Shown here in pieces: positions 13,543 to 60,693 of a stretch of 64,000 nucleotides of DNA. Where the stretch lies: NCBI RefSeq assembly GCF_988242995.1, contig NZ_OZ547043.1; one strand, written 5' to 3'. Each line of letters opens with the position of its first letter. The first letter of the stretch is position 1. The position numbers and the translations under genes are program-made. The notes below the pieces were generated by a model that saw only the letters and a program-made list of their open reading frames with translations, was not told the DNA's origin and did not search any database.

Positions 13543-13552
13543 TGTTTCTCAC

Positions 13553-14083
13553 TTATCCGGGATAAACAGTAATAACATCACCATCACAGACCACACCGCC
13601 TGTATACAGATAGCCGGGAATGTCCTGGATAATGTTCAGGCCGATAAGGTGGCGACTTGCGGGTTTGGCATCGGCAATCAGCCGTTCCATTTCCAGATAC
13701 ATCTCCTCCGTGATACCGCTTTCCAGCACACCGATATCAAGGCGAAAGGTTCCGGGCGGGTCGTTTGTCTCCCACCATTCCTTTACGTTAATGAGATAGC
13801 CGAGCGGCTCCACCACACGCCGGATTGCGCCGACAGTGCCTTTATGACAATGAATGAAATACGCATCGCGGATAACGGCGCGTTTTGTCGCTTCCGGCCA
13901 CTTTTCATCCCACCTGTCGACCGAAAACGCCCACGCCAGCCACGGCAGCAGATTTGCCGGACAGGTATCCGGGTTCCACAGCTCACGAATACTGACCGGC
14001 GTTTTTTCAATTTCCGCACAGGCTTTTGCGGCAGCAACTTCAAGCGGTGATGAGCCGGTCGGCAGCAGTCGCGAATCACTCAT
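13553..14083 (-). CDS. I: Baseplate protein gpI
   Basis: 176 aa, P2 I length and position. Confidence 0.9.
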   Translation of the reverse strand: MSDSRLLPTGSSPLEVAAAKACAEIEKTPVSIRELWNPDTCPANLLPWLAWAFSVDRWDEKWPEATKRAVIRDAYFIHCHKGTVGAIRRVVEPLGYLINVKEWWETNDPPGTFRLDIGVLESGITEEMYLEMERLIADAKPASRHLIGLNIIQDIPGYLYTGGVVCDGDVITVYPG

Positions 14084-14984
14084 CCGAGCCTCCGGTCACG
14101 ACGCGGTATTCGGTACAGAAAGACGCCTGCGTACTGTTGAGCACGATGTCAGCCAGTGGTGCAGTCAGTTCGACACGCTGCACGCCTTCCACATGCAAAG
14201 CGGCATAAATGGCAGACAGACGGATGTCGCGCCCCAGCCGGTGCTGTGCCGTGATATACGCTTCCAGTTTTTTTACTGCGGCCGCGCGGATGGGTTCGCT
14301 TTCGGGACCAGGGTAAAGGTAAAGCGTGGCGTTTATCTGGTATTCAACGATGGCGGCAGACTGCACGGTCACGCGGTCGGCCACCGGCCTGACATCCTCG
14401 CCATTAAGGGCGTTACGTACCACAGCCAGCAGGTCTTCGGATGCCACACCGTTATTCTCACGTGACAGCACAGAGATGGTGACGCAGGCCGGAGACGGAC
14501 TGGTGACAGAGATATCCGCGACACGCCCGTCGGCACTGCGGCCATGATACTGATAGGCACCCACCGACCCGGCGACGCTTAAACCTTCAAACGCCTGCTG
14601 AATACGCAGACGATAATCGGTGTCAGATTCCATCACTGCCGGTGTCGGCGGGAGGGTCGAATCATCTGCCGGGGTGATAATCAGGCGCGTGGTGTTGTAA
14701 TTGGCACCAATCACATCAAGGTCATTACCGGCTGCACAGGCCAGCATCACCGCCCGTGCAGCCTCATTCACACGCTGACGCCAGATAAGCTCACGATAAG
14801 CATTTTCCTCCAGCAGTTTGACGAGAGGCTCAGATTCCAGCGTCAGGGTACGGGCGACCGCCTCCTGCTGGTCTTCCGGGTAAAGGGAAATCAGTGTCGC
14901 CTTGCGTTCGGCGAGAATGGTTTCAAAGTCCAGCTCCTCGACCACATCCGGTGCGGGTAGCTGGTTCAGGTCGATAATCGGCAT
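14076..14984 (-). CDS. J: Baseplate protein gpJ
   Basis: 302 aa, P2 J length and position. Confidence 0.9.
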   Translation of the reverse strand: MPIIDLNQLPAPDVVEELDFETILAERKATLISLYPEDQQEAVARTLTLESEPLVKLLEENAYRELIWRQRVNEAARAVMLACAAGNDLDVIGANYNTTRLIITPADDSTLPPTPAVMESDTDYRLRIQQAFEGLSVAGSVGAYQYHGRSADGRVADISVTSPSPACVTISVLSRENNGVASEDLLAVVRNALNGEDVRPVADRVTVQSAAIVEYQINATLYLYPGPESEPIRAAAVKKLEAYITAQHRLGRDIRLSAIYAALHVEGVQRVELTAPLADIVLNSTQASFCTEYRVVTGGSDE

Positions 14985-14988
14985 GGTT

Positions 14989-15336
14989 TCAACTCACAGG
15001 GATGGTTAACGAAAGTGGCTGGCCGGTGTCGTTGTGCTGGCCGGTTAACGTGACCGTCATTCGCCCGTCAAAACTGCGCGCCGTGGTGACAGATGACAGC
15101 GTGACGCGGGGTTCCCATTTCAGCACCGCCATGTAACAGGCGACCTTAATCTGCAACTCAAGCGCCGGGGTCTGCGGCTGGTCAATCATTGACGCCAGCA
15201 ACGAGCCGTAATCACGACGCATCACCCGTGAGCCGACCGGTGTGCGCAGGATATCGCCGATACTCTGGCTGATATGCTCAAGGTCAGTGACAGTCAGGCC
15301 ATCACTGCGATTCATTCCGAGATAACGCGCTGTCAT
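14989..15336 (-). CDS. W: Baseplate protein gpW
   Basis: 115 aa, P2 W length and position. Confidence 0.9.
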   Translation of the reverse strand: MTARYLGMNRSDGLTVTDLEHISQSIGDILRTPVGSRVMRRDYGSLLASMIDQPQTPALELQIKVACYMAVLKWEPRVTLSSVTTARSFDGRMTVTLTGQHNDTGQPLSLTIPVS

Positions 15337-15968
15337 AGAGGGCTCCCGGTTGTGCCGCCGCTGTCGCCGGGGTGTTTATGGGTATGCAGTACCTTACCGT
15401 TTGATGAGAGTTCACCGCCGGTGTGTTCAATGTTGCCGCGCATCGTCCCGCCCTTCTGCACTTCCAGCGTGCCGGTAATCAGCCTGTTGGTGCAGACCAC
15501 CTCCGGTGTGTCCAGGGTGACGCGGGTTGATGCTTTCACCATGACCACCGGCACCGTGGCAGTAACAGAATCAGAAGCCGTCACGCTGGCCGTTTTAATT
15601 CCGCTTACCGTGAGTGCACTGGTTTCAGGTTCATATTCAATCACCGCCCCGTCAGGGAAACGGATATGCAGGGCATCCGCCGACGCAGACGGCGCGGGGT
15701 TATTGCCGGAATAAATCCCCGGCAGAACGAACGCCGTGTCGAGTTCACCGCCCACGGCCAGAATCAGCACCTGCTCCCCCACGGAAGGTGCCCACCATGT
15801 GCGCGAACGACCGGCACGATGGGTCAGCCACTGAAGCCAGTCAGTGCACATGCCGCCGGTCTGCACACGGCAGCGACCGGCGTTAAGGTCGGTTTCGACG
15901 ACAAGGCCGGTGCGGATCATGTTGCGCAGTGCGCGCGCGATTTCCTGAATATTTGCGAGAGTGTTCAT
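15333..15968 (-). CDS. V: Baseplate spike protein gpV
   Basis: 211 aa, P2 V length and position. Confidence 0.9.
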   Translation of the reverse strand: MNTLANIQEIARALRNMIRTGLVVETDLNAGRCRVQTGGMCTDWLQWLTHRAGRSRTWWAPSVGEQVLILAVGGELDTAFVLPGIYSGNNPAPSASADALHIRFPDGAVIEYEPETSALTVSGIKTASVTASDSVTATVPVVMVKASTRVTLDTPEVVCTNRLITGTLEVQKGGTMRGNIEHTGGELSSNGKVLHTHKHPGDSGGTTGSPL

Positions 15969-16034
15969 AACGGGAAGGATGCCGCCGGGTCATACCGGCG
16001 GCAATGTGACGATGAGGTGTCGGGAATGGCACAA

Positions 16035-16487
16035 CTAACGGTCGAGGTGAGCCAGGATAATCTCTTCAATCATCTGTACATCCTCACCGGTGAAGCCGAG
16101 CAGAGGGCGCGCCGGATAATCAATTTTCTTACCGTCTTTCCGGTTTTCTTCCGACAGACCGAACTGATGCACACTGGCGATTTTCGGTGACTTCCCGCCG
16201 TAAAACTCCATTGATGCCTGTTCCGGGCTGGCGCGGATATGCAAAAAACGACTGGTGATAAGTTTCGCAAACATTTTTCGCTTAACACGACCGGTCTTTT
16301 TTCTGGCGCTCTGCTGCTGGCGTGGCGCATAGGGTGTGCCGTCCGGGGCTTTCTGTGCCATCACCCGACGCTGCTGACTCTGTCGCAGACGTTTTGCCAG
16401 TTCGGCACTCAGTCGCCGACGCCCTGATGGTGACAGTGATTCAATCAGCCCGGTCAGCCGGTCTTCAAAACGCTTAAACTCATTCAT
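16035..16487 (-). CDS. S: Tail completion protein gpS
   Basis: 150 aa, P2 S length and position. Confidence 0.9.
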   Translation of the reverse strand: MNEFKRFEDRLTGLIESLSPSGRRRLSAELAKRLRQSQQRRVMAQKAPDGTPYAPRQQQSARKKTGRVKRKMFAKLITSRFLHIRASPEQASMEFYGGKSPKIASVHQFGLSEENRKDGKKIDYPARPLLGFTGEDVQMIEEIILAHLDR

Positions 16488-16947
16488 CCCACTTGCTCAC
16501 CAGTTCGCCATTGATATAAAGCTCCATCGGGCGGGTGACCGGCTCCGGCGGCGGAGGTTCCGGGATATTCTTCACATGCAGTGCGCCGTCCACCTCACTG
16601 ACCAGCGTGCGCTCGGTCAGCATCAGGCTGATGCTGATATCAAAGCTGCTGTCATTGTTGATGTCCGCATAAAACGTGAAGCCCTTTTTCTGGCCTTCGT
16701 CGGTGGTCATGATGTCGGGCTGATTTTCCCGCAGCCACGCCAGCACCGGCACGATGAGCAGGTCAAAATCACCGGTAAAGTCGGTCACAATGACATTGAG
16801 CGTGTAACGCTTTTCGAATGACAGCGACGTCGCCAGTGTGGAGGCAATACTCCCGTTATCCACGAATATCCGCAGCATCTCTGGACTGGTTTTCAGCACC
16901 GTGACGGCATCAGTCAGCGCCCTGCGCAGGCTGTCGGGTTTGAGCAT
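16480..16947 (-). CDS. R: Tail completion protein gpR
   Basis: 155 aa, P2 R length and position. Confidence 0.9.
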   Translation of the reverse strand: MLKPDSLRRALTDAVTVLKTSPEMLRIFVDNGSIASTLATSLSFEKRYTLNVIVTDFTGDFDLLIVPVLAWLRENQPDIMTTDEGQKKGFTFYADINNDSSFDISISLMLTERTLVSEVDGALHVKNIPEPPPPEPVTRPMELYINGELVSKWDE

Positions 16948-25554: not shown

Positions 25555-27387
25555 TCAAACAGAGCCCTGTTCAAAAACAGTATCAAAATATGGTAGGAGA
25601 GGATAAGCACACAGAAAGAAAATCAGGATGCATGCATATGTCGTTGTTTCATCGTAACAAGCATTAGTATATAAATTACCATGTGCTAATTTATGTCTTA
25701 AGGTTGCCCCACTCTTTCTGTTAAAAAGAACATCGATAGTCAAAACAAGATTTTTAGAAAAGATACTTTCCAAATCATCTCTGCATTTATCTAGAAGCTG
25801 AGAAATACTTGTTGACTCCTCTAATCCCTTATCCAAATATCTAGTAGCATCCTTTCCACTAAGCTCATAATAATAACGAACCATACCTTCCATTTGTGGT
25901 ATTAAAAGATAAGCTGCACTGATGTAATCTCCCTGCCATAATTTGTAAAAGCCCAAATTAAAAATCTCCCTAAACTCCGGCTTGACAATTGGACTAGTTG
26001 TAACCAATTTAACGAATGTTGACAACGTCAAGCCATGTTCTTGAGAAAGTACATAGCGAGCAGGTTCAAAGACACCGTTTACAAAAATCTTATGAGTAAT
26101 CTCGAAATTTCTTAGATATTGATCAATAACAACATCATCACTCATATCTTTTTTATTATCCAACGGCGGGATTGTATATATCTTACGCCCACTCTCATCA
26201 TTAATTTCTGTTCCAACAAAACTAGAGAATAAACTTTTTTCTGATAATCTTAAAACTTGTTCCCTCATGCTTTCAATATTTTCAATCGGTGTTTCACTCA
26301 TTAAAACTTTGAATATATCGGGCAAAGAACGCCCCGTCAGTTTTTTTTCACTTTCAGCAACCAAGTCACTAATATCAATAGAATGGCTTAAAGTGACATA
26401 TTCACTCCTTACTTCTTCTCTCAAATTAGCAAGTTGTTCCTTTAAATCTTCTATCTGTTGGCTATCACCACCGTACTGTCTTAATTCAGAGATAGCTGTT
26501 CTTAACCAAGAGATCTTACCCATATTATCAGGTCGTTCTGTTGCAACTTTAATAGTAATATTTGCAGATGCCAGTTTACATCTCTTGGCACGTTCATACT
26601 CACCATTTTTTTCATAAATAACTGCACTTGTCATATAAAGTGATTTTACAGCATCATAATATTTTTTATCTTTATGCTGCTCAGCCATCTTCTCAGCATT
26701 TTCCGCATACTGCAGATTATACCCATCAAAATCACGCACCATAAACCAAGTCAAATTATTGAAACCTTCAAAGATTAATCTTTCATTTTGAATACTATAA
26801 AGAGAATGAATGGCATTTTTAATCGCCATGTTTCCTTCTGATTTTCTAGGGTAGACCATTTTATTAATGTGCAAAGCCCTAGCAATATAATCACGAGCAA
26901 AAATAAAGCAATTTAAATCACTTTCATCCATGCTTTCGTTTTTTATTATTAGCTTTTCAATTGCTATATTTAGCATTTCAGCATAGGAATCAATTGCTTT
27001 AATTGCCACGTCTTTATTTTTCCGATTATTACACCAAACAACATCATATATTCTTGATAACAAAAATGGATTGGTTATTTTTTGAGAAACATATAAAAGA
27101 CAGTCATTCACCTGCTCATCAAAATCTTCAGGCAATATTGATCTTTTATTACCCCAAATCATTTGGGGTTCAAATGCTGGAGTGTTGTTAACAACTTGCA
27201 AATTGAAACTATATAGCATACCAAAAAGAGATGCTAATTTTTTCTCTTTGGGGTTTTCTGATGACTCAGCAATCCCATCCAGATATTTTTTTATTTTATG
27301 TGCATGAAATGTAACTGGTATATACATAAAAACACTATAATCTAGTGTTTCAAGCTCTTCCCTTGTAAGAACAAAGATATCATTCAT
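25555..27387 (-). CDS. Cargo protein, 611 aa, unknown family; C-terminal R-x4-H (HEPN-like) motif; candidate single-gene defence/abortive-infection effector
   Basis: Large ORF in the P2 tin/old position between cos and A; ~30-35% GC on sampled lines versus ~52% flanks; ATG 27387 with AAGGTG RBS (track start 27492 is a TTG); motif RHKLAH encoded at 25681-25698; no Walker A seen. Confidence 0.6.
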   Translation of the reverse strand: MNDIFVLTREELETLDYSVFMYIPVTFHAHKIKKYLDGIAESSENPKEKKLASLFGMLYSFNLQVVNNTPAFEPQMIWGNKRSILPEDFDEQVNDCLLYVSQKITNPFLLSRIYDVVWCNNRKNKDVAIKAIDSYAEMLNIAIEKLIIKNESMDESDLNCFIFARDYIARALHINKMVYPRKSEGNMAIKNAIHSLYSIQNERLIFEGFNNLTWFMVRDFDGYNLQYAENAEKMAEQHKDKKYYDAVKSLYMTSAVIYEKNGEYERAKRCKLASANITIKVATERPDNMGKISWLRTAISELRQYGGDSQQIEDLKEQLANLREEVRSEYVTLSHSIDISDLVAESEKKLTGRSLPDIFKVLMSETPIENIESMREQVLRLSEKSLFSSFVGTEINDESGRKIYTIPPLDNKKDMSDDVVIDQYLRNFEITHKIFVNGVFEPARYVLSQEHGLTLSTFVKLVTTSPIVKPEFREIFNLGFYKLWQGDYISAAYLLIPQMEGMVRYYYELSGKDATRYLDKGLEESTSISQLLDKCRDDLESIFSKNLVLTIDVLFNRKSGATLRHKLAHGNLYTNACYDETTTYACILIFFLCAYPLLPYFDTVFEQGSV

Positions 27388-27506
27388 CGTTTTCACCTTT
27401 TTCAGTATAAATTTGCACGCATTATTATTAGCAACATAATCATCAATAGTTAACACATGCAGATAGACAGCAATTTTACTATTATGCAACAAATTAAATC
27501 AGATGT

Positions 27507-32347: not shown

Positions 32348-33361
32348 ATGGCAATCAAAAAACTCGATGATGGTCGATATGAAGTGGACATCCGCCCTAC
32401 TGGACGTAATGGAAAACGCATCCGTAGGAAGTTTGATAAGAAAAGCGAAGCTGTCGCTTTCGAGAAATACACGTTGTACAACCACCACAATAAAGAATGG
32501 CTATCAAAACCAACAGACAAGCGACGTCTGTCGGAGCTGACACAGATCTGGTGGGATTTAAAGGGTAAACACGAAGAGCATGGGAGATCTAATCTTGGAA
32601 AAATTGAAATCTTCACAAAAATAACGAATGACCCATGCGCATTTCAAATTTCGAAATCGCTTATCAGCCAGTACTGCGCCACCCGAAGAAGTCAGGGTAT
32701 TAAACCTTCGAGTATCAATCGTGATTTAACATGTATTAGCGGCATGTTTACAGCCCTGATTGAAGCGGAGTTATTCTTTGGTGAGCACCCTATCAGAGGG
32801 ACAAAAAGGCTTAAGGAGGAAAAACCAGACACAGGCTATCTCACGCAGGAAGAAATTGCCTTACTGCTTGCTGCTCTTGACGGCGACAACAAAAAGATTG
32901 CGATTCTTTGCCTGAGTACTGGAGCACGTTGGGGAGAAGCAGCTCGTTTGAAAGCAGAAAATATTATCCATAACCGCGTCACGTTTGTTAAAACGAAAAC
33001 AAACAAACCACGCACCGTCCCGATCTCAGAGGCTGTTGCCAAAATGATCGCGGATAACAAACGAGGTTTTTTATTCCCTGATGCTGATTACCCTCGCTTC
33101 AGACGAACAATGAAAGCAATAAAACCGGATTTGCCAATGGGGCAAGCCACACATGCACTAAGGCACAGCTTTGCCACTCATTTCATGATTAATGGAGGAA
33201 GTATTATCACGCTACAACGGATACTAGGTCACACACGGATTGAGCAAACTATGGTTTACGCTCATTTTGCGCCAGAGTACCTTCAGGACGCCATTTCTCT
33301 TAATCCGCTAAGAGGTGGTACTGAGGCTGAGAGTGTCCACACAGTGTCCACAGTAGAGTAA
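32348..33361 (+). CDS. int: Tyrosine integrase
   Basis: 337 aa, P2 Int length; catalytic-region motifs (ARWGE, HALRHSFATH, VYAHF); 80 bp from attR. Confidence 0.9.
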   Translation: MAIKKLDDGRYEVDIRPTGRNGKRIRRKFDKKSEAVAFEKYTLYNHHNKEWLSKPTDKRRLSELTQIWWDLKGKHEEHGRSNLGKIEIFTKITNDPCAFQISKSLISQYCATRRSQGIKPSSINRDLTCISGMFTALIEAELFFGEHPIRGTKRLKEEKPDTGYLTQEEIALLLAALDGDNKKIAILCLSTGARWGEAARLKAENIIHNRVTFVKTKTNKPRTVPISEAVAKMIADNKRGFLFPDADYPRFRRTMKAIKPDLPMGQATHALRHSFATHFMINGGSIITLQRILGHTRIEQTMVYAHFAPEYLQDAISLNPLRGGTEAESVHTVSTVE

Positions 33362-33440: not shown

Positions 33441-33467
33441 AATCTCCCTTACACGGGCTTATTTTTT
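33441..33467. repeat. attR core, 27 bp
   Basis: Exact copy of 1160-1186. Confidence 0.85.
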
Positions 33468-34369: not shown

Positions 34370-35269
34370 ATGGCAGAATTTCCCGCCAGCTTACTGATTC
34401 TTAATGGCAAAAGTACTGACAATTTACCATTGCGCGAAGCAATTATGCTGTTGCGTGAGGAAGGAATGACGATCCATGTGCGGGTCACCTGGGAGAAAGG
34501 CGATGCCGCACGATATGTAGAGGAGGCCCGGAAGTTGGGCGTCGCAACGGTGATTGCCGGTGGTGGCGATGGCACCATTAATGAAGTTTCTACGGCGTTG
34601 ATTCAGTGTGAGGGGGATGACATACCCGCGCTAGGAATTTTGCCATTAGGAACCGCCAATGATTTTGCCACCAGTGTAAGGATTCCTGAGGCACTGGATA
34701 AGGCGCTGAAACTGGCAATTGCCGGTGACGCCATTGCGATAGATATGGCGCAGGTCAACAAACAAACCTGTTTTATTAATATGGCGACAGGCGGATTTGG
34801 GACGCGTATTACCACAGAAACGCCGGAAAAATTAAAAGCCGCGCTGGGTGGCGTCTCTTACATCATTCATGGCTTAATGCGCATGGATACTCTGCAACCG
34901 GACCGTTGTGAGATCCGCGGTGAAAACTTTCACTGGCAAGGTGACGCCCTGGTCATTGGTATTGGTAACGGGCGTCAGGCCGGTGGCGGTCAGCAATTGT
35001 GCCCGAACGCGTTAATTAACGATGGCTTGCTGCAACTGCGCATTTTTACCGGCGATGAAATTCTTCCGGCTCTCGTATCAACATTAAAATCTGACGAAGA
35101 TAACCCGAATATTATCGAAGGCGCTTCGTCGTGGTTTGATATACAAGCCCCACACGAAATCACTTTTAATCTTGATGGCGAACCGTTGAGCGGACAAAAC
35201 TTTCATATTGAAATACTTCCGGCGGCGTTGCGTTGTCGATTACCACCAGATTGCCCATTGTTGCGTTAA
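34370..35269 (+). CDS. yegS: Lipid kinase YegS (DAGK catalytic domain)
   Basis: 299 aa; GGDGT motif of diacylglycerol-kinase-like fold. Confidence 0.85.
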
Positions 35270-35350: not shown

Positions 35351-36130
35351 CTACACCGTAATTAATTTCACCCGTGTCTTCTGCAATGCCAGTTTATCCA
35401 CCTCTGACACGGCATCATCGGTAATAATAATGTCAATTTTTTCGATTGGCAGTACCTGATTAAAACCGCGACGATTAAATTTCGATGAATCGAGAACGGC
35501 AATCACTTTATTTGCGGCTGTAACCATCGCCCCGCTAATCGAATAACCTTCATTAAAGGTCGTAATACCATTAACCGCATCAATACCATCAGCACCGACA
35601 AACATTAAATCGGCATTAATATCCTGCAATGAACGCTCGGCAATGGAACCATGCATCGAGCGTGTTTTATGGCGGACGGTCCCACCACAGACGACCAGAG
35701 TAATGTCTTTATTTTCGGAAAGGGCAAATGCTGCCGGGAGACTGTTGGTAATCACCGTGATATTTTTGGCGGTCATTAATCCTTCGGCGATAAGCATTGT
35801 CGTACTTCCGCTGTCGAGAATAACGGTCATCCCTTCGTGGATCATTTTGACTGCCGCCTGCGCTATTCTGTTTTTTGGCGCGCTGGCGAGCTGAAATCGC
35901 TCTTTAAACCCAACTTCCTGGGTCTCGGTTTCACTATTACCGGACATTATTTTCGCCGCACCGCCATGAAAGCGCGTAACCACGCCTTTTTGTTCGAGAA
36001 AGCGCAAATCGGCACGGATTGTCGCTTCCGAGGCAGCAAATACTCCCGCCAGATCCTGAACAAGCACGGTTCCCTGTTCATTCACTAATTGGATGATCTT
36101 ATTCCTTCGCTCGAATGAATTCATCGTCAT
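35351..36130 (-). CDS. gatR: DeoR-family galactitol operon repressor GatR (uninterrupted)
   Basis: 259 aa, N-terminal HTH, DeoR C-terminal sugar-binding region; downstream of gatD. Confidence 0.8.
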   Translation of the reverse strand: MTMNSFERRNKIIQLVNEQGTVLVQDLAGVFAASEATIRADLRFLEQKGVVTRFHGGAAKIMSGNSETETQEVGFKERFQLASAPKNRIAQAAVKMIHEGMTVILDSGSTTMLIAEGLMTAKNITVITNSLPAAFALSENKDITLVVCGGTVRHKTRSMHGSIAERSLQDINADLMFVGADGIDAVNGITTFNEGYSISGAMVTAANKVIAVLDSSKFNRRGFNQVLPIEKIDIIITDDAVSEVDKLALQKTRVKLITV

Positions 36131-36229
36131 TTACCCATATTCAATTGTGGCTAGTGTAAACGAAGGGGGACCATTGGTGAATGATCTGTTTTGCACAATA
36201 CCGGGCCAGCATCACGCTGGCCCGCGGTT

Positions 36230-37270
36230 TCAGGGAATGAGCAACACTTTGCCCGGCATAGCATTACGAGCGATGTCACGCACCGCCTGGGCGAAGCTTT
36301 CAAAGCTTCCACGGTGAGCGATTAATGGCTCCAGGCTTAACTTACGTTCTGTCAGCAACCGGCTCGCCGTTTCCCACTCCTGCCCCGGCCAAGGGCTGGA
36401 GTAGTTCATCCAGCTGCCGATAACCGTCAGCTCTTTACGTAATATTTTGCCAAACGTTGTCGATGTTAAATGCAGATCCTGATGCAACGTGCCCACCAGC
36501 GCCAGCTGGGCATGAGGCCCGGCAATCTCTACCGCCAGTTCGACGGTTTTCGGGACGCCAGCCGTCTCGAGGATAAGCTGATTAAAGCGCAGCTCGCGTA
36601 AAACGCCCTGCATTTGCGGCGCGCTCATTTCAAGGCTGTTAAATGTTAGCATCGCCCCGAAAGATTTTGCCAGAGCCAGTTTTTCTGAGCTAATGTCGAT
36701 AGCCGTCACACTCTTTGCTCCCAGCGCGACAGCGCACTGAATTGCCAGCAGGCCAATGGTTCCGGCACCAATAATAATAACGTTTTTATTCTCACAACCT
36801 TGCGCTAAATGAAAAGCATGCAGGCCAACGGTAATCGGCTCAATAAAAGCCCCATCCTCAATAGACATATCCGTGGGTAGAGCAAAGACATTTTTTCGCT
36901 TAACGACAATATATTCAGCAAATCCACCATCACGCCGCGAGCCAATAAAATCATATTTTGCGCACTGGGAATAAAACCCTTTCAAACACTCTGGACAAGT
37001 AAAACAGGGTAATAACGGCACACAGGCAACCGCATCGCCAGGGTGTAAATCATCAACACCGGATCCCACCGCATCAATATAGCCGCTAAATTCATGGCCT
37101 AACGTTATTGGATAATAATGTGCACCATTTTTAAATATCCTGGGTAAATCGGAACCACATAAGCCCGAGCTGGCAATTTTTACCCGCACCTGATCCTGAT
37201 GTTTAATTTCAGGAATGACGCTTTCTGCAATGCGCACGATACCATCAGTATCATTCACCACTGATTTCAT
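36230..37270 (-). CDS. gatD: Galactitol-1-phosphate 5-dehydrogenase
   Basis: 346 aa, zinc-dependent medium-chain dehydrogenase motifs (GHEFSG; GAGTIG). Confidence 0.85.
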   Translation of the reverse strand: MKSVVNDTDGIVRIAESVIPEIKHQDQVRVKIASSGLCGSDLPRIFKNGAHYYPITLGHEFSGYIDAVGSGVDDLHPGDAVACVPLLPCFTCPECLKGFYSQCAKYDFIGSRRDGGFAEYIVVKRKNVFALPTDMSIEDGAFIEPITVGLHAFHLAQGCENKNVIIIGAGTIGLLAIQCAVALGAKSVTAIDISSEKLALAKSFGAMLTFNSLEMSAPQMQGVLRELRFNQLILETAGVPKTVELAVEIAGPHAQLALVGTLHQDLHLTSTTFGKILRKELTVIGSWMNYSSPWPGQEWETASRLLTERKLSLEPLIAHRGSFESFAQAVRDIARNAMPGKVLLIP

Positions 37271-37317
37271 AAAAACTCCTGATTGTTAAGGGGGATTACC
37301 TCCCCCTCAGGTAAAAA

Positions 37318-38673
37318 TTATTCTGCGAGAACGGCTTTCTCTTGTTTAATAAAACCACGCGCTCTACGCCAGGTCATGAAAATACCGGTCAGATAAATTG
37401 CGCCGATAATAATGAAACCGGGAATATTTTGCGGGGAGAAAACCTGAATCAGTAACCAGGTAATGGGAGAACCGCCCTGATCCATTGAAGCCACCATACC
37501 TCCGGCTTTTAACGCCCCAGCATTGGCCGCCAGTTGGGTGTGCAAACCAATAGTTTGCGTCGCGATCCACAGGGTGATGCTCATAATGATGACACCCGAG
37601 ATTAAGGTGCGGAACAGATTTCCACGATGCACGGCGACCGCCATCGCCACGAAGAAGCCGATAGTTGCAAGATCGCCAAACGGCAGCACCTGATTACCCG
37701 GCACACAAACAGCAATTAAAATGGTGAGTGGAATAAAAATCAGGCTTGCCGATACCACCGCCGTATGCCCCAGCAGCAACGCCGGATCAAGGCCAATCAG
37801 GAACTCCTGACCGCCGAACTTCGCCTGTAAACGACTACGGGCCTGCTTAGCGATGGGCGTTAAACCATCCATGATGGGTTTAATCACCCGTGGCATCAGC
37901 AGCATAACTGCCGCCGTTTTTACCGCCAGCTGCAATACACCTTTGACATCGTAACCCGCGAGGATGCCGATAATCAGCCCCATCACAAAACCCACGGTGA
38001 CAGGCTCGCCAAATGGGCCAAATTTGCGCTGAATATCGTCGGCGCTAAATTTAATACGGTTAACGCCTGGGATTTTCTCGATGATAGCATCCACCAGCAC
38101 CGCAATTGGCCCCAGATACGCCGACGTACCGTGCGGAATGGCAATGCCTTCCAGCTCAAAGAAATTTCGGGTATCGCGGGCAAACCAGTCGCCGAGCTTA
38201 TAAACAAACGCCGCGTGAATTACCACACCCGCCATCCCTATCATCCATGAACCGGTTGCCAGATGCAGCAATGCGCCGGTGAAGGTCATATGCCAGATAT
38301 TCCAGATATCAACATTTACCACCCGCGTCATACGGGTCAGTAGCATCGCCACGTTAACCAGAATCGCAATCGGAATCGCCACCAGCGCAATTTGCGACGC
38401 CCAGGTCATTGGTGAAGAGCCCGGCCAACCGACATCGACCACATGCAGATTCAGGTCGAAATTTTCCGCCATCGCTTTCGCCGCCGGGCCAATGGAATCC
38501 AGCATTAAGCCAATCACAAGGCCAATACCAACAAAGCCAATCCCGATATGCAGACCCGCTTTAAAGCAATCGCCTGCCTTCATGCCTAATATTTTAGAAA
38601 AAATAATGATGACAATCGGCAGCATCACCGTAGGGCCGAGGTCGAGAATATAACGCATGACTTCTGAAAACAT
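37318..38673 (-). CDS. gatC: PTS galactitol EIIC
   Basis: 451 aa polytopic membrane protein within the gat operon. Confidence 0.85.
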   Translation of the reverse strand: MFSEVMRYILDLGPTVMLPIVIIIFSKILGMKAGDCFKAGLHIGIGFVGIGLVIGLMLDSIGPAAKAMAENFDLNLHVVDVGWPGSSPMTWASQIALVAIPIAILVNVAMLLTRMTRVVNVDIWNIWHMTFTGALLHLATGSWMIGMAGVVIHAAFVYKLGDWFARDTRNFFELEGIAIPHGTSAYLGPIAVLVDAIIEKIPGVNRIKFSADDIQRKFGPFGEPVTVGFVMGLIIGILAGYDVKGVLQLAVKTAAVMLLMPRVIKPIMDGLTPIAKQARSRLQAKFGGQEFLIGLDPALLLGHTAVVSASLIFIPLTILIAVCVPGNQVLPFGDLATIGFFVAMAVAVHRGNLFRTLISGVIIMSITLWIATQTIGLHTQLAANAGALKAGGMVASMDQGGSPITWLLIQVFSPQNIPGFIIIGAIYLTGIFMTWRRARGFIKQEKAVLAE

Positions 38674-38676
38674 AGG

Positions 38677-38961
38677 TCACCCCTGTAAGATAGTCAGAAT
38701 TTTATTTTGTAATGCTTCGATACCGACACCAGAAACAAAAGGCATGCCGTGAACTAACGGAATATCGCCAAAACTACGGTCAACTTTGGCGGTAGTACAT
38801 ATCAAATGCACGCCATCCATATAGGTTTCTATTTCATTAACCCGACACTGGATTAATTCAACAGGAATATTATGACTCTGACACAACTCTTTAATTTCTT
38901 CCGCCGCCATCGTGGAGGTCGCAACCGCGCCTCCGCAAGCGACAATAATCTTGCGTTTCAT
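38677..38961 (-). CDS. gatB: PTS galactitol EIIB
   Basis: 94 aa; conserved Cys in [10 protein letters not shown]. Confidence 0.85.
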
Positions 38962-38991
38962 AAATAGTCCTTTTTATTGTTACAGAGGGAT

Positions 38992-39444
38992 TTATTCGTC
39001 TGAATCTAAAACATACTTTGTGAAGTATTCCTTTAACTGGGTTTCAGGAAGAGTGATTAGTGTCTCGACGATCTCGGGCTGTTGTAACTTGCCAAATAAA
39101 CAGCGTAAAAGTTTCAATTGCTGCTGCGGATTTTCCACAATTAACGCAATAACCAACGATACCGCCACGTCGTTATCATCATCCGCTTGCTGAAAATGAA
39201 CTTTATTTGTTGGCCTTAACAGATAAATGGCTGACGACTTAGCATGAATCGCCTCACAATGCGGTATTGCAATGGCGTGCTGCTCAAGCATTATCCCGGT
39301 AGGGAATTCTGCTTCTCTGGCAATTAATGCCTGTGGCCAGGTATCATGAACCACACCTTTCGCGAGCATCTCATTACCGATATGGGTTAAAACTTCGCTA
39401 CGATCGACAAAAGAAATTCCGCTACGAACAAACAGGTTAGTCAT
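38992..39444 (-). CDS. gatA: PTS galactitol EIIA
   Basis: 150 aa; operon position. Confidence 0.85.
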   Translation of the reverse strand: MTNLFVRSGISFVDRSEVLTHIGNEMLAKGVVHDTWPQALIAREAEFPTGIMLEQHAIAIPHCEAIHAKSSAIYLLRPTNKVHFQQADDDNDVAVSLVIALIVENPQQQLKLLRCLFGKLQQPEIVETLITLPETQLKEYFTKYVLDSDE

Positions 39445-39453
39445 ATACCGTCC

Positions 39454-41653
<2,200 letters not shown>

Positions 41654-41713
41654 TCAAATGTCGAGATAATGATCACAAAAACGACAATTCGAAAATTAAT
41701 CAGAATGACAGGC

Positions 41714-41743
41714 AAAAAAACGGCCTCCCGATAGGGAAGCCGT
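41714..41743 (-). terminator. Rho-independent terminator downstream of fbaB
   Basis: Minus-strand hairpin (ggcttccc / gggaggcc, one G-U pair) followed by U7. Confidence 0.5.
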
Positions 41744-41763
41744 AGCAAAGTGCGCGTGTTTTT

Positions 41764-41790
41764 ATGCCGGATGCGACGTAAACGCCTTTT
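41764..41790. repeat. REP-like palindromic element
   Basis: atgccggatgcgacgtaaacgcc resembles the E. coli REP consensus (gccggatgcggcgtaaacgcc...). Confidence 0.4.
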
Positions 41791-41826
41791 CCGTCATACG
41801 TGGTAGTGCTGTTCGTATAAGGCGTA

Positions 41827-50231: not shown

Positions 50232-51056
50232 ATGACCGAATTTACCACTCTTCTTCAGCAAGGAAACGCCTGGTTCTTCATCCCCAGCGCCATCTTACTT
50301 GGTGCGCTTCATGGCCTGGAACCAGGGCACTCAAAAACGATGATGGCGGCGTTTATCATCGCCATCAAAGGCACCATTAAACAGGCGGTAATGCTCGGAC
50401 TGGCAGCAACCATTTCGCATACCGCAGTGGTCTGGTTGATTGCCTTTGGCGGGATGGTGATCAGCAAGCGCTTTACTGCTCAATCAGCAGAACCGTGGCT
50501 CCAGTTGATTTCCGCAGTGATCATTATTGGCACCGCGTTCTGGATGTTCTGGCGTACCTGGCGCGGCGAACGCAACTGGCTGGAGAATATGCACGAGCAT
50601 GATCATGAACATCATCACCACGATCACGAAGATCACCACGACCATGGACATCATCACCATCACGAACATGGCGAGTATCAGGATGCCCATGCACGAGCCC
50701 ATGCCAATGACATTAAACGACGCTTTGATGGTAGAGAGGTCACCAACTGGCAAATTTTGTTATTTGGCTTAACCGGTGGCCTTATACCCTGCCCGGCAGC
50801 AATTACCGTGCTGTTGATTTGCATTCAGTTGAAAGCCCTGACACTGGGCGCAACACTGGTCGTCAGTTTCAGCATTGGCCTGGCGTTAACGCTGGTCACC
50901 GTAGGCGTTGGCGCAGCAATCAGCGTTCAGCAGGTCGCAAAACGCTGGAGCGGATTTAACACTCTCGCTAAACGCGCCCCCTATTTTTCCAGTCTGTTGA
51001 TTGGCTTAGTTGGTGTGTATATGGGCGTACATGGCTTCATGGGCATAATGCGATAA
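50232..51056 (+). CDS. rcnA: Ni/Co efflux permease RcnA
   Basis: 274 aa with His-rich cytoplasmic loop (HEHDHEHHHHDHEDHHDHGHHHHHEHG). Confidence 0.9.
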   Translation: MTEFTTLLQQGNAWFFIPSAILLGALHGLEPGHSKTMMAAFIIAIKGTIKQAVMLGLAATISHTAVVWLIAFGGMVISKRFTAQSAEPWLQLISAVIIIGTAFWMFWRTWRGERNWLENMHEHDHEHHHHDHEDHHDHGHHHHHEHGEYQDAHARAHANDIKRRFDGREVTNWQILLFGLTGGLIPCPAAITVLLICIQLKALTLGATLVVSFSIGLALTLVTVGVGAAISVQQVAKRWSGFNTLAKRAPYFSSLLIGLVGVYMGVHGFMGIMR

Positions 51057-51274
51057 CTCAATCCTTTAGGCTTGCATGTTATCTTCAGCCCAGGATGATT
51101 CTTAAATCAGCTATTTCCGCTGACTCTCTGCTCGCTAAGGATGCTTTTAGGGCATCCTTTCATTTACACTTTTTACGAAATCATGGGATCACTAACAAAA
51201 TATCGCTTGTCAGTTATATTGTATGGCAGGAAAGATATGCGACTGATATTACAGATCCCCAAAGTGGAGAGTTT

Positions 51275-51613
51275 ATGACCATTAAAAATAAGATGTTGCT
51301 GGGTGCGCTTTTGCTGGTTACCAGTGCCGCCTGGGCCGCACCAGCCACCGCGGGTTCGACCAATACCTCGGGAATTTCTAAGTATGAGTTAAGCAGTTTC
51401 ATTGCTGACTTTAAGCATTTCAAACCAGGCGATACCGTCCCAGAGATGTACCGCACCGATGAGTACAACATTAAGCAGTGGCAGTTACGTAACCTGCCCG
51501 CGCCTGATGCCGGGACGCACTGGACCTATATGGGTGGCGCGTACGTGTTGATCAGCGACACCGACGGTAAAATCATTAAAGCCTACGACGGTGAGATTTT
51601 TTATCATCGCTAA
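51275..51613 (+). CDS. rcnB: Periplasmic protein RcnB (YohN)
   Basis: 112 aa from ATG 51275 (GGAGA RBS) with signal peptide; track start is further upstream. Confidence 0.8.
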   Translation: MTIKNKMLLGALLLVTSAAWAAPATAGSTNTSGISKYELSSFIADFKHFKPGDTVPEMYRTDEYNIKQWQLRNLPAPDAGTHWTYMGGAYVLISDTDGKIIKAYDGEIFYHR

Positions 51614-51638
51614 AAAAAACCCCCTCATCATGAGGGGG
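51612..51638 (-). terminator. Terminator of the yeh operon (overlaps rcnB stop)
   Basis: Hairpin ccccctca-tca-tgaggggg followed on minus strand by U8. Confidence 0.5.
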
Positions 51639-51694
51639 AAATGCAGACACCTTGTTATTTTTTATTATTAGCCACTTGCTCGTCTTGCTTGTTA

Positions 51695-52729
51695 TTAGTC
51701 GTATTTCACGTTGATTAATGCGGTTGCCTCCAGTGCGCCAGATTTTACTTTATTTTTATCATAAACATAGTAACTGGCAGTTACTGGAATTGAGACCGTT
51801 GTATCTGTAATTTTTGACTTCGCCGCAATTTCTTTTAAATTTGTGTACCCTTTGCTGTTATCAGTGATATTTAAAAATGTGACTGGCGAACCATTGCTTT
51901 CAAGCATAAATCCGACTCCATTATCTTCTGCACCTTTCAGGATCGTGTTACTGCCGGCTAACAAATCAGAACTTGATAAATACACCTGCATTCTCCGTGA
52001 TGTTTGATTCTGCTGACCTAATAAATTTTTACAGCGCAGAATAATATCCCCTTTTTTGCTATTTATTGTTGCTTTGTTACCTGTGGTTGGTAATTGTAAA
52101 ATTGGAATACTCTCTAAAGTAATTAATAAATCATCAGGTTTGCAGGTCGTTGTTATCGGGTTATATGACAATGCCAGATTAAAGGAATAGACACCTGCAT
52201 TTTGTGCCAATGCATTTCTGTAGCTATTTACACATGCATCCCATGACTTGCCACCGAATAAACACAGTAAAAATTGTACTGCAGCACTCCCGCGTGTCGA
52301 TGATGAAGCACTGGATAATGTCGCAACACCATTAATCATCACTGAACCGCCACCCCCCGCAGAAACATTCACTTTTGCATTACTGGCCGCAGGTGTCACC
52401 GTTACCGAATAACCACTGGTGAAACTGGTCTGATTATTTGACAACGTGATGTTGTTTTTATTGGTCCATTCAAAATGTAAATTTAATTTAATGGTATCGT
52501 TATAAAGTCCAACAATAATATCCGATGGGCTCATAGGGGTGATAGTATTTGTACTCACGCATGACGAATCATTAAAATTATGCTCATATGTCGCTATTTG
52601 TGTTTGACTAAGTGCAAAATCCCCCTGAACAACCAAATTGTGCTGAACAGATAACTCACTATAACATGCCGCATAGCTCACAGGCATAACTATCATCATT
52701 AATATAAATAGCATTATGCGAATTTCCAT
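51695..52729 (-). CDS. yehA: Fimbrial adhesin-like protein YehA
   Basis: 344 aa with signal peptide; last gene of chaperone-usher cluster. Confidence 0.75.
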   Translation of the reverse strand: MEIRIMLFILMMIVMPVSYAACYSELSVQHNLVVQGDFALSQTQIATYEHNFNDSSCVSTNTITPMSPSDIIVGLYNDTIKLNLHFEWTNKNNITLSNNQTSFTSGYSVTVTPAASNAKVNVSAGGGGSVMINGVATLSSASSSTRGSAAVQFLLCLFGGKSWDACVNSYRNALAQNAGVYSFNLALSYNPITTTCKPDDLLITLESIPILQLPTTGNKATINSKKGDIILRCKNLLGQQNQTSRRMQVYLSSSDLLAGSNTILKGAEDNGVGFMLESNGSPVTFLNITDNSKGYTNLKEIAAKSKITDTTVSIPVTASYYVYDKNKVKSGALEATALINVKYD

Positions 52730-52744
52730 AGAACCACCTGACTA

Positions 52745-55240
52745 TTACTGGCAAATATAATTTCTACTTTCATCAATCTCTTTACCGAAGGTGATTGTGC
52801 ATGAAAGTCCTTGTTGCTTATCAATTGCTACATTAACCGATGGCGGTACTTCATTGGTGCGAATAAATAACTGACTTCCCTGGCCGACAACGCCAATATT
52901 ATGACCGTGGATATCATTGACTTCATAACCAAACGTTAATGGTTGCCCATCCGCTCTTAACGCTTTTATAAACCAGGGCTTGCGCTGATCGGTATCAAAA
53001 TTAACCAGTACAACCGCGCCGCGATAAGGGACGGCAATTTTCCGGTTACCGCGCAATTCTGCTTCGCTATCGCTTTGCGACACATCCAGCATCAGGTGAT
53101 TTTCCCGATAAGGTGTCATTCCGTCGTATACCACCACTCCATTACGGTTTGTTGTGCGATATTTTTGCCCATTGACATAAGCATCTTTAATTCCTGACGC
53201 ATTCATCACAGCAAACGTTTCGGAAAGACGGTTCGCCAGATTAACGCCACCCGACCAGGCGACAATGCCCCCTGAAACACTGGCTCCAGCCTGTCGATAA
53301 GTACTCGACTGACTATAACTGCCATTCACTGTCGCAACCGGCGCGTTCCAGGTCAAATTCGCCCCAGCTGTCGTTTCATTTCCCTGATACTGATGACTCA
53401 GGTTGACCCCATAGTTAAATTGATCCCGGCTTCCAACGGTTCCCGATAATCCCGTATTATTTGAGGCAAAACCCTGATCATCAAACGTCGTTGAGTTAGA
53501 CATATATATTTGCCGACGAGGCGTCGTAACGTCATCACCCCAATCAAAGGGAATCGATATAAAAATATTAAAACGTTTCTCTTCATGATGATTCTCGTCA
53601 TAAGCCTGGCTTGCCGCGAGGGTATAGCTTATCCGTCGCAGGTTGTTGGAATAACTCAACTGATAATCCTTACTGCTGCCGCTACGCCCCCAGTAATCTC
53701 GCCATAACGTACTTAAGGACACAGAACCCCAGCCTTCTGGCAATGACTGGCTCATATTGGCAGAAAAGCTATTTTTACGGCCAAAATCGTTCTGGTAATA
53801 ATCGGCAATGTCATAGATATCGTTTTCATCACGGCGATAATTATCCTTATTGTTTGCCCAAACGTGATCGTTAAATGTCCGGTAATCACGCGACGAATAA
53901 CGCCAGGCCGCCAGACCAAAACGCGTCGACGTTTGGCTCACAAATTTGTTGTAGGCAATTTGATAACTTTGCCCGTCAAACACATCGCCGTTGTCTTGTT
54001 TACTATGCGACTTTGTGGCATCGACGGAAATGGCACCAATGCGTGTATTCCAGCCAGTCCCCAAAGTGAACGCGTAATAATTATTCGCGACCATCGAGCC
54101 ACCATACAGCGTTAATAAGTTATTAAAACCATACTGATAACCCGCCTGGACAAAATCACTTTGTTTGCTCGCCCCTTCAATACGGCTACGACCCGCCGCA
54201 AAATCATATTTCGACACGCCGGGTTGCAGCATATTTGGTACCGCTGCATAAGGCACCAGATAGGTGGTTACCGAACCGTCCGCCTCTTTCACGCTGACAT
54301 CAAGATCCGCTCCACCTCCGGCCAACTGCAAATCTGTAATCGCAAACGGGCCAGGAGGAACCTCTTTCTGATAAACCACAAAACCATTCTGTTCAATAGT
54401 TACCAGCGCGTTACTCTGAGCAATCCCCTGCACCCGTGGCGTAAAATTTTGTTTCGAGTTAGGCAACATCTGCATATCACGAAACAACCGCACACCGCTG
54501 AAGCGAACAGAATCAAAAATATCGCTTGATGTGTACATATCACCCACACGAAGCGTGCCGAGAAGTTGGGCAAATCCACGTTCCAGATACAGGGTATTGC
54601 TTTTCCACACCCCTGGATTGTTATTTGTTTTACTGAAACTGGCATCAGAATGCAGTTGCCACCCCAGTAAGTTTAACCCGCTGTTAAAACGTACATATGT
54701 ACTCTTGCTATTACCGGACGCTTTATAATCGCTGTAATACTGACTCATATAATAAGAGGTATAAAACGCATTAATACCCCGCTCCCAGTTTTCAGGTGGT
54801 ACATAGCCACTTTCCAGTTCTTCCACCCAGGCTTGCGGGACACTGAAATCGAGACGAAAAACTCCGATATCCCAGGTATAGCTCCCGCCCTGAATAAGTT
54901 GCTTAAATGTTAAACATTGCTTACCGCTGGAAAAGTTATCGGTATTAATGCCTAACCGCTTGATAATTTCCCTTGATAAACATGTTTCTTGCGGGTTGTC
55001 TTTAACAATAATCTCATATTTCCCGCGCCATTGCTTATTGACATAAATATCGATGTCATACTGCCCCGGCAAGGGTTGATTATCATCAAGACGAATATTT
55101 GCAACCTGCTGGTCTTTCATTCCACCTATCATAAAATGGGTATCAAAGGTTTCTTCAGCTGCATAAGCTTCAATGCCGAGCAATAACGCTACGATTGCTG
55201 ATGCAAGTGGGGTCATTCTCAACATAGGCAGCTCCTGCAA
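52745..55240 (-). CDS. yehB: Fimbrial outer-membrane usher YehB
   Basis: 831 aa; usher size and position. Confidence 0.85.
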   Translation of the reverse strand: MQELPMLRMTPLASAIVALLLGIEAYAAEETFDTHFMIGGMKDQQVANIRLDDNQPLPGQYDIDIYVNKQWRGKYEIIVKDNPQETCLSREIIKRLGINTDNFSSGKQCLTFKQLIQGGSYTWDIGVFRLDFSVPQAWVEELESGYVPPENWERGINAFYTSYYMSQYYSDYKASGNSKSTYVRFNSGLNLLGWQLHSDASFSKTNNNPGVWKSNTLYLERGFAQLLGTLRVGDMYTSSDIFDSVRFSGVRLFRDMQMLPNSKQNFTPRVQGIAQSNALVTIEQNGFVVYQKEVPPGPFAITDLQLAGGGADLDVSVKEADGSVTTYLVPYAAVPNMLQPGVSKYDFAAGRSRIEGASKQSDFVQAGYQYGFNNLLTLYGGSMVANNYYAFTLGTGWNTRIGAISVDATKSHSKQDNGDVFDGQSYQIAYNKFVSQTSTRFGLAAWRYSSRDYRTFNDHVWANNKDNYRRDENDIYDIADYYQNDFGRKNSFSANMSQSLPEGWGSVSLSTLWRDYWGRSGSSKDYQLSYSNNLRRISYTLAASQAYDENHHEEKRFNIFISIPFDWGDDVTTPRRQIYMSNSTTFDDQGFASNNTGLSGTVGSRDQFNYGVNLSHQYQGNETTAGANLTWNAPVATVNGSYSQSSTYRQAGASVSGGIVAWSGGVNLANRLSETFAVMNASGIKDAYVNGQKYRTTNRNGVVVYDGMTPYRENHLMLDVSQSDSEAELRGNRKIAVPYRGAVVLVNFDTDQRKPWFIKALRADGQPLTFGYEVNDIHGHNIGVVGQGSQLFIRTNEVPPSVNVAIDKQQGLSCTITFGKEIDESRNYICQ

Positions 55241-55915
55241 TTAAATTTTGTCACTAATATAGTTGCCATGGTCATCGATAATGGTCAGATGCCAGTTATT
55301 CGCATTATTACTTTTGACATTAATACTCTGACTTTCTAAGGGGGCAATCATAATAGTTTCATAATTGACTTTGACATTATTAGCTTTGACATCCGAAATC
55401 GTCACCCAATTTGCTGAGTCATTTTTTATCACCAATCCATTGCCACTGCGATTTACCAGTAACTTTTTAAATGTCGCTTTATTTACCGGTGCAATACCCG
55501 CAGGCCGGTAAAACAATTTGATTCTGTTTTGCATTGCAAATTTCAGTGCATTCTTGCCCTCTTGCTCTGGACTATTTGGTGGAATATCCAGAACATTCAG
55601 ATAAAAAATGCTCTCTTTATTAGTGGGTAGTTTATTCGGCATAATTTTGATTTTTACTTGCTGCCCGGAATTTGCCCCTATTTTTGCCACTGGTGGCGTT
55701 AACATGAAAGGAACCTGAATTTTTTCTGGTGGTAACGACGTATCGCCATCATCAATCCACGCCTGCAGCAGCGAAGAACGGTTTCCCTGATTCATCAACT
55801 GCACCATCACTTCTTTATTTTCTGCCGGGTAAATAATACGCGTCCCGTAGATAACAATACCGGCATGTGCAGGAAGGACCATAGAAGAAATGAGTAAAGC
55901 AAATAATCCTTTCAT
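55241..55915 (-). CDS. yehC: Fimbrial periplasmic chaperone YehC
   Basis: 224 aa; PapD-like size and position. Confidence 0.85.
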   Translation of the reverse strand: MKGLFALLISSMVLPAHAGIVIYGTRIIYPAENKEVMVQLMNQGNRSSLLQAWIDDGDTSLPPEKIQVPFMLTPPVAKIGANSGQQVKIKIMPNKLPTNKESIFYLNVLDIPPNSPEQEGKNALKFAMQNRIKLFYRPAGIAPVNKATFKKLLVNRSGNGLVIKNDSANWVTISDVKANNVKVNYETIMIAPLESQSINVKSNNANNWHLTIIDDHGNYISDKI

Positions 55916-55995
55916 CTTAATGCCTCTTAAATTAAAAGGCCGCCATGGGGATAGCGGCCATGTTTATTACCTGGGGAAACTTGAAATTTTATTTA

Positions 55996-56538
55996 TTAAT
56001 CTTGCGCCACACGCATAACCAGAGAAGATAACACATCACCTGATTGCACTGAATTATCTGTCAACTTCAGGTATTTTGCTTTAAACGGAATAGCATATTG
56101 ACCTTCCGCTGTTTTATAACTCTCAATGTTAAAAGGTGCAGAAACATCCAGGACATCGCTGTTATCACCTAAATAGAGATAGTACCCCACGGTATCGTTG
56201 CTACTGGCTATCGCCTTATCGTTTCCGGTTATTTTATCGTTGGTAATCAACGAGAGTTTTACACCAGCAACTTCTTTCGGACAGCTAATTTTTAACATGC
56301 TGCTGGTTACACCGACTGCATCATCATAGGTCGAGTATTTAGCTTTACCTTCAAAGACAGTGGTTGGTACAGTTGGCATATTAATACTTACTGAATCGCC
56401 ACCCGCTTCGAATTTACACGGAGATTCTGCAATATTCCCTTTAATGGTTAATGTTCCGGTATCAACGTCTGCGGCAAATACCCCAGCGCTCATAAAAAAA
56501 GAAGAAAAGACAGCGGCAGCAATAATTGAGCGTTTCAT
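55996..56538 (-). CDS. yehD: Fimbrial major subunit YehD
   Basis: 180 aa with signal peptide; first gene of the cluster. Confidence 0.8.
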   Translation of the reverse strand: MKRSIIAAAVFSSFFMSAGVFAADVDTGTLTIKGNIAESPCKFEAGGDSVSINMPTVPTTVFEGKAKYSTYDDAVGVTSSMLKISCPKEVAGVKLSLITNDKITGNDKAIASSNDTVGYYLYLGDNSDVLDVSAPFNIESYKTAEGQYAIPFKAKYLKLTDNSVQSGDVLSSLVMRVAQD

Positions 56539-56833
56539 AATATGTTCCTTAATAAACTTTATTTTTTGGTTGTTAAGAGTCTGTATCTCTTGGAAACAAA
56601 TTTCTCACATCAAAAAAGTTGCCGCAATGTAAACATATTGTTTTATTGATTTAAAACAAATTAACTATTGCAATATAAATACAACAAATACTTAAGCATA
56701 TTAAATATTTATCACGTCTATTAATTAATGCAGATTTTTGTAAATGGTATTATTGATATCAATAAAAAAGCTGAAATCATTCACACGAATGATTTCAGCT
56801 TTCTAAATCCGATTAAAAAACCAGGGTGGCAAA

Positions 56834-57115
56834 TTAATCGTAGCGATTTAACACGATTCGACGTTTGCTATCGCTACCTGCAACAACCACTTCTGTCGTT
56901 ACACCTTTGACTGGCGAAGAAACCTGATGACGGGTATCAACATCATACGTTAACTGACCACAATGCTGTTGAGGTTGACCATTAACCATAGCCATACTGC
57001 ATGTTGGGGGACTGATCCTGCCATTAATCGCTAATTTGGCAGTCTCTGAAGAGAATGCGGGAGAAGCCAATCCATAGGCAAGAAAAATAATTCCTGACAG
57101 CCAATACTTATTCAT
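56834..57115 (-). CDS. yehE: Small secreted protein YehE
   Basis: 93 aa with signal peptide; K-12 gene order. Confidence 0.7.
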   Translation of the reverse strand: MNKYWLSGIIFLAYGLASPAFSSETAKLAINGRISPPTCSMAMVNGQPQQHCGQLTYDVDTRHQVSSPVKGVTTEVVVAGSDSKRRIVLNRYD

Positions 57116-57377
57116 TGAACGTTATCCCTGTAGTAAAGGTTATGCCTGGATAGAATGAGTGCATAACAAACTATAGCTGTACATCCACTACACAGCCACG
57201 AAGGATGATAATGAAGCATTGCCTGTATGATCAATCGACTTTGTAGAGTTTCGGACGAAGGTCCGCAGAATATTCGCAGCATTAAATAAGTGTTCATTAA
57301 TGCGGCAAAAACAAATACACCGCATCAATGTAACATCTCTGCGGTGTATGAAAAACAACCAAAAAGGTTAATACGCG

Positions 57378-58487: not shown

Positions 58488-58618
58488 CCCGACTCCTTTT
58501 TTGTATAGATAAACCATCAGCGGATAGTTTACCTGAAGAATATAGAGAAGTACTTACTTAACATTTTCCCATTTGGTACTATCTAACCCCTTTTCACTAT
58601 TAAGAAGTAATGCCTACT

Positions 58619-60652: not shown

Positions 60653-60662
60653 TCCCCCTTCA

Positions 60663-60693
60663 AGGCGCTGTATCGACAGCGCCTTTTCTTTAT
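60663..60693 (+). terminator. metG rho-independent terminator
   Basis: Hairpin aggcgctg-tatcga-cagcgcct followed by T-rich tract. Confidence 0.6.

Follow-up and report, generated by a model that had tools for sequence, protein, structure and literature searches.

An uninterrupted gatR gene predicts repressible galactitol catabolism in an Escherichia coli strain

Introduction

Disruption of gatR, the repressor gene of the galactitol (gat) operon, in Escherichia coli K-12 has reportedly been known since 1996. Insertion of an IS element inactivates the K-12 gene and renders the gat operon constitutive (PMC5850726, PMC9189660), the element being named IS1 in one passage of PMC5850726. The functional state is represented by E. 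coli HS: Sousa et al. (2017) replaced the K-12 pseudogene with HS gatR, using yegS and gatD primers, which gave regulated gat expression and makes HS GatR an experimentally functional gat repressor; in mice, new IS insertions in the restored gene produced constitutive clones again (PMC5850726). Whether gat expression is regulated or constitutive affects fitness in the mouse gut (PMC5850726), and competition for galactitol contributes to colonisation resistance against Salmonella (cited in PMC11445065).

Beyond GatR itself, the closest described relative is AgaR of the aga (N-acetylgalactosamine) regulon, which shares 38% identity with GatR over 254 residues and has the same two-domain architecture. 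AgaR controls the paralogous tagatose-bisphosphate pathway, with KbaY and KbaZ in the place of GatY and GatZ, but acts on a different operon and for a different substrate. DeoR, the only solved-structure relative of GatR found by sequence (PDB 7l6l), has a homologous C-terminal sensor domain (E 1.9e-11, residues 83-254), but is a distant member of the family with a different effector and different operators.

Here, we describe the gat locus in a 64,000-nucleotide stretch of contig NZ_OZ547043.1 (RefSeq assembly GCF_988242995.1), the whole of which is referred to below as the window, and compare its gatR gene with the disrupted K-12 gene, the functional HS gene and the copies carried by complete E. 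coli genomes.

Results

The original prediction was that gatR in this stretch is an uninterrupted ORF encoding a 259-residue repressor. The first part holds without qualification, as the minus-strand frame at 35351..36130 runs from ATG to TAG through 259 codons with no internal stop; the probability of a random open frame of this length is about (61/64)^259, or roughly 4e-6. The product is a DeoR/GlpR family transcriptional regulator in which the N-terminal helix-turn-helix (HTH) domain and the C-terminal sugar-phosphate sensor domain are both present. HTH_DeoR (Pfam PF08220) covers residues 8-60 (E 1.3e-16, 60.5 bits against a cut-off of 21) and DeoRC (Pfam PF00455) covers residues 85-238 (E 2.5e-51, 174.2 bits against 31.8), so that both domains exceed their gathering scores.

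The length of the protein needs adjustment. While 259 codons is correct for the frame, the RefSeq version of gatR in related genomes is 257 aa long and begins at the second ATG (36124), the related NCBIfam AgaR and SrlR models begin to align at residue 3 of the longer form, and the distances from a weak GGG Shine-Dalgarno motif, 3 nt to the first ATG and 9 nt to the second, favour the second. Taken together, these three observations make a 257-aa GatR the more likely product. This is a small correction that leaves the finding of an intact gatR unaffected.

The assignment to GatR, rather than to another member of the family, follows from identity to the K-12 and HS genes and from position, next to yegS (34370..35269, + strand) on one side and gatD on the other, downstream of gatYZABCD. 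The sole gene between yegS and gatD in HS encodes WP_001295426.1, an identical 257-aa protein preceded by an identical upstream spacer, and the same accession is found in M217 and FDAARGOS_1276, in which gatR is identical to the window gene at the nucleotide level as well. The full 780 nt are 100% identical in the independent complete genomes M217, B20105, Ec-U14-1 and FDAARGOS_1276. The HS gene differs from that of the window by 16 synonymous nucleotide changes. We also considered whether the protein could be AgaR; it scores 232.9 bits against the NCBIfam AgaR equivalog model (NF040755), below the cut-off of 260, and GatR is thus a paralogue of AgaR and not AgaR itself.

Table 1. Coordinates of the gat features in the window
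Feature	Position	Strand	Evidence
gatR, galactitol operon DeoR-family repressor	35351..36130; likely start 36124, stop 35351-35353	-	ORF, Pfam, identity to WP_001295426.1 genes
K-12 IS3 target site GAC, unoccupied here	35826..35828	-	blastn of K-12 junction region, junction sequences, K-12-type annotation
gatD-gatR spacer	36131..36229	-	alignment, inverted repeat, promoter scan, consensus scan
gatYZABCD, full length	36230..41599	-	NCBIfam cut-offs, lengths vs relatives
gatD	36230-37270	-	NCBIfam equivalog
gatC	37318-38673	-	NCBIfam EIIC-GAT subfamily model
gatB	38677-38961	-	NCBIfam equivalog
gatA	38992-39444	-	NCBIfam equivalog
gatZ	39454-40716	-	NCBIfam equivalog
gatY	40745-41599	-	NCBIfam tagatose-bisphosphate aldolase models
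gatY control region	41600..41725	-	promoter/terminator scan, repeats, consensus scans, 13-allele alignment

It had also been claimed that K-12 gatR is disrupted by an insertion element that leaves the operon constitutive, and that no such element lies near the gene here; an alignment to the K-12 fragments was proposed. The annotation of a K-12-derived genome agrees with the literature cited above on the first point, since gatR is annotated there as a pseudogene in two partial pieces, one on each side of an IS3 transposase. Both the RefSeq annotation and the terminal sequences identify the element as IS3, in contrast to the IS1 of the PMC5850726 passage. Alignment of the junctions placed the K-12 insertion point at the equivalent of 35826-35828, with a 3-bp GAC target duplication at ORF nt 303-305; the interrupted gene would encode approximately 101 native residues and a short IS-encoded tail. 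With IS3 and one copy of GAC taken out of the K-12 gene, the rebuilt protein showed no amino-acid difference from the window protein. The two genes are about 98% identical at the nucleotide level, and all 16 of the nucleotide differences between the window gene and the rebuilt K-12 gene are synonymous. K-12 and the window therefore hold the same gene for the same protein, which in K-12 is split by IS3 and in the window is whole, the target site being contiguous and IS3 absent from the window.

The claim that no IS sequence lies near gatR was equally sound. The K-12 IS3 element has no blastn match in the 64-kb window beyond the gatR flanks. Over 35.7 kb (16033-51778) the window is collinear with FDAARGOS_1276 apart from 23 gap positions, and the annotation of FDAARGOS_1276 shows no transposase in that stretch; nor do the relatives collinear with 1192-16500 and 51000-64000 have one there, so that transposase-free collinear relatives cover the window from 1192 to 64000.

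The remainder of the operon is also complete (Table 1). All six gatYZABCD products score above their curated NCBIfam cut-offs, have the same lengths as in HS, 118UI and FDAARGOS_1276, and contain no internal stops. The order yegS / gatR-gatD-gatC-gatB-gatA-gatZ-gatY / fbaB is common to HS, M217, 118UI and K-12, and past gatY the window continues with fbaB, yegTUVWX, thiDM, rcnRAB, yehABCDE, apbC and metG, the usual arrangement of the gat locus on the E. coli chromosome. Relative to HS, there are nine replacements in GatD, eight in GatZ and none in GatR, making GatR the best conserved of the cluster's proteins. The lack of amino-acid differences, together with the 16 of 16 synonymous changes, indicates strong purifying selection on GatR, a pattern consistent with a working repressor.

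The window, HS and K-12 do not differ in the gatD-gatR spacer (100% identity). Directly after the gatD stop codon, at 36202-36224, a perfect 9-bp GC-rich stem (CGGGCCAGC-N5-GCTGGCCCG) with no T-run is found in identical form in HS and K-12, and might act between the two genes either as a partial terminator or as a hairpin that stabilises the mRNA. A simple scan called no consensus sigma-70 promoter for gatR in this spacer. Because the stem-loop has no T-run, read-through into gatR from gatD is possible. Autoregulation of GatR through an operator in the spacer was considered and set aside, as the AgaR consensus described below has no match there with five or fewer mismatches.

At the other end of the operon, the gatY control region lies downstream of the fbaB terminator (41720-41743). 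It contains a predicted sigma-70-like gatY promoter, with a -35 element TCGACA from 41664, an 18-nt spacer and a -10 element CATTAT ending at 41635. A CRP-like sequence read by eye, TGTGATCATTATCTCG, overlaps the -35 element just upstream of this predicted promoter and is a candidate site, and an 11-nt inverted repeat, ATTTGAAAACA-N13-TGTTTTGAAAT (41625-41659), brackets the -10 element. The region is approximately 91% identical to that of K-12 and represents a different natural allele from that of HS, with about 14 of 156 positions changed relative to K-12 and HS. The changes include a 2-bp deletion, a G-to-A change within the spacer of the CRP-like site, found among the 13 sampled alleles only here and in 118UI, and paired A-to-G changes through which the repeat around the gatY -10 gains symmetry. 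All blocks that are invariant across the 13 natural alleles are kept in the window, and the window allele is found at at least 99% identity in 179 complete genomes.

The fbaB-gatY spacer is 78 nt shorter than that of HS, with one REP-type element in the window (41745-41826) and two in HS (39555-39861), located before the fbaB terminator in both, so that HS has one additional copy after fbaB. Loss of regulatory DNA was rejected as an account of this 78-bp difference, because the extra HS copy lies upstream of the fbaB terminator and outside the promoter.

A limited search of the accessible literature found no definition of the GatR operator, so operator assignment rests on analogy with the 38%-identical paralogue. 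As a proxy, we used the AgaR operator consensus and validated it on aga promoters: the K-12 agaR-kbaZ and agaS promoter regions gave six matches, with 0.03 expected. The only match in the 64-kb window with three or fewer mismatches (0.13 expected) is at 41629-41652, over the gatY -10. Allowing up to five mismatches gave 12 matches in the window, three of which, all on the gat strand, fall in the 125-bp gatY control region (41629-41652, 41675-41698 and 41691-41714); about 0.02 of these 12 would be expected there from its share of the window length. With three to five mismatches, the gat sites are weaker than genuine aga sites (zero to three), and the best of them has three mismatches in the window allele against four in K-12 and HS. 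By analogy, then, the AgaR-like sites in 41600-41725 are candidate GatR operators.

Finally, we surveyed 5,426 complete E. coli genomes, scoring gatR as contiguous where a match extended over at least 80% of its length. A gatR match was present in 5,109 genomes and was contiguous in 4,756 (about 88% of the full set), a count that scores match length and so includes contiguous copies whether or not they carry individual frameshifts. The exact K-12 gatR::IS3 junction accounted for 344 of the 353 non-contiguous copies, and the junction carriers that were sampled, for example ER1709 and JM109, are K-12 laboratory derivatives. Given this proportion, disruption of gatR is in essence peculiar to the K-12 laboratory lineage, and nearly all other gatR-bearing E. 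coli have a contiguous, full-length gene. An intact gatR is the wild-type norm of the species and not a notable feature of this sequence.

Discussion

Identity of the window GatR with the HS allele that restored regulation in K-12 leads to the prediction that gat is repressible here. We put the probability at approximately 0.9 that the window gatR is an ordinary functional wild-type allele and that the operon would be both inducible and repressible in this strain, unlike in K-12. That intact, functional gatR alleles exist is already known biology.

Our data are compatible with a model in which GatR would be translated from a cistron of its own, which follows gatD, and would bind, through its HTH_DeoR domain, the AgaR-like, TTTC-rich candidate operators at gatY, blocking transcription of gatYZABCD when galactitol is lacking. 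One putative operator would occlude the gatY -10, with one or two more upstream of the CRP-like site, and the bound repressors might cooperate. By analogy with other members of the DeoR family, a galactitol-derived sugar phosphate produced by PTS uptake may bind the DeoRC domain and release the repressor. Full gat expression would probably require cAMP-CRP as well, and thus be under catabolite control, as the CRP-like site suggests.

The most serious challenge to a regulated operon comes from the gatY control region. The roughly 14 changes in 156 positions that set it apart from K-12 and HS, among them the 2-bp deletion and the G-to-A change in the CRP-like spacer, might weaken the operators and leave gat constitutive or differently set despite an intact gatR, and the functional evidence for HS gatR was obtained in a K-12 background, whose control region shares only about 91% identity with the allele found here. 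We regard this as improbable, since the allele lacks none of the blocks conserved in all 13 alleles, fits the consensus no worse at its best site than K-12 and HS do (three mismatches against four) and is carried, at 99% identity or more, by 179 complete genomes; moreover, purifying selection on GatR would be pointless without a target.

It is less probable still that gatR is open yet fails to be expressed as a functional repressor, through a wrong start or the want of a promoter of its own, leaving the strain to behave like K-12. The scan that called no consensus sigma-70 promoter in the gatD-gatR spacer, the weak Shine-Dalgarno motif and the two candidate ATG codons would all fit such a failure, but neither the spacer nor the start region differs from that of the functional donor HS or of K-12 (100% identity), each of the 16 substitutions relative to K-12 is synonymous, and transcription could read through from gatD past a stem-loop without a T-run. 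An assembly or sequencing artefact, in which a frameshift or insertion in the true genome had been collapsed, has a negligible chance of being correct: short-read assemblies can collapse IS elements, but we found nothing else in favour of this explanation, and the same 780 nt recur in M217, B20105, Ec-U14-1 and FDAARGOS_1276 with collinear flanks. Thus, a working, regulated gatR remains our preferred reading.

For studies of gat regulation in this strain, K-12 is the wrong model, and galactitol-inducible expression is to be expected. In view of the effects of gat regulation on fitness in the gut, the regulated genotype is relevant to any gut-colonisation work with the strain.

The allelic variation upstream of gatY invites a further, rather unlikely, proposal: that different alleles, acting through AgaR-like operators at the -10 and at one or two upstream positions, set different thresholds of galactitol repression and induction between lineages. 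If true, such threshold-tuning alleles could matter, as selection on gat regulation in the gut is strong. However, the divergence of the control region is similar to the synonymous divergence of its neighbours, so neutral drift explains the alleles equally well. On the same comparison (approximately 9-10% divergence, against an estimated synonymous divergence of approximately 8-10% in gatR and gatZ), we do not propose a hyper-polymorphic control region under diversifying selection.

Several observations concern the surroundings of gatR. The gat cluster (35351-41599) resembles a recombination mosaic: gatY is nucleotide-identical to that of 118UI, gatR is identical to that of FDAARGOS_1276 and M217, and gatZ differs at 31-39 positions from 118UI, FDAARGOS_1276 and HS. 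For the 24 kb at 24000-48000, the best full-coverage match among complete RefSeq E. coli genomes is at most 98.3%. Further along, the region of yehA, a fimbrial adhesin-like gene (51778-52752), is not collinear with FDAARGOS_1276 by megablast and has an approximately 98% match to other E. coli; it is an allelic variant of a fimbrial tip gene.

A P2-like prophage (1160-33467) ends 1.9 kb from gatR, leaving the gene untouched. The prophage is complete, with ogr, D, tail, baseplate, lysis, capsid, terminase, portal, replication and cox genes, a C-like repressor gene and an integrase gene (32348-33361). A 27-nt direct repeat, AATCTCCCTTACACGGGCTTATTTTTT, marks its two ends (1160-1186 and 33441-33467), and the insertion lies between yegQ and yegR, a site at which K-12 has only a remnant consisting of ogrK and a partial gpD.

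Two loci stand out within the prophage. Between the portal and replication-endonuclease genes, 25555-27492 (- strand) encodes a 645-aa cargo protein with a DUF7380 domain (E 3.8e-38) and a match to PDC-S39, a candidate single-gene defence system of PADLOC (E 2.9e-84); the locus is probably a P2 hotspot occupied by an anti-phage gene. A RES-domain protein is encoded at 8941-9699 (- strand; Pfam RES, E 1.5e-12), flanked by the genes for tail sheath and tail-fibre assembly, and carries the name 'RES family NAD+ phosphorylase' in a RefSeq relative. It is adjoined by a convergent 223-aa ORF at 8231-8902 (+ strand), for which no family match was found, and the pair may be toxin-antitoxin or defence cargo.
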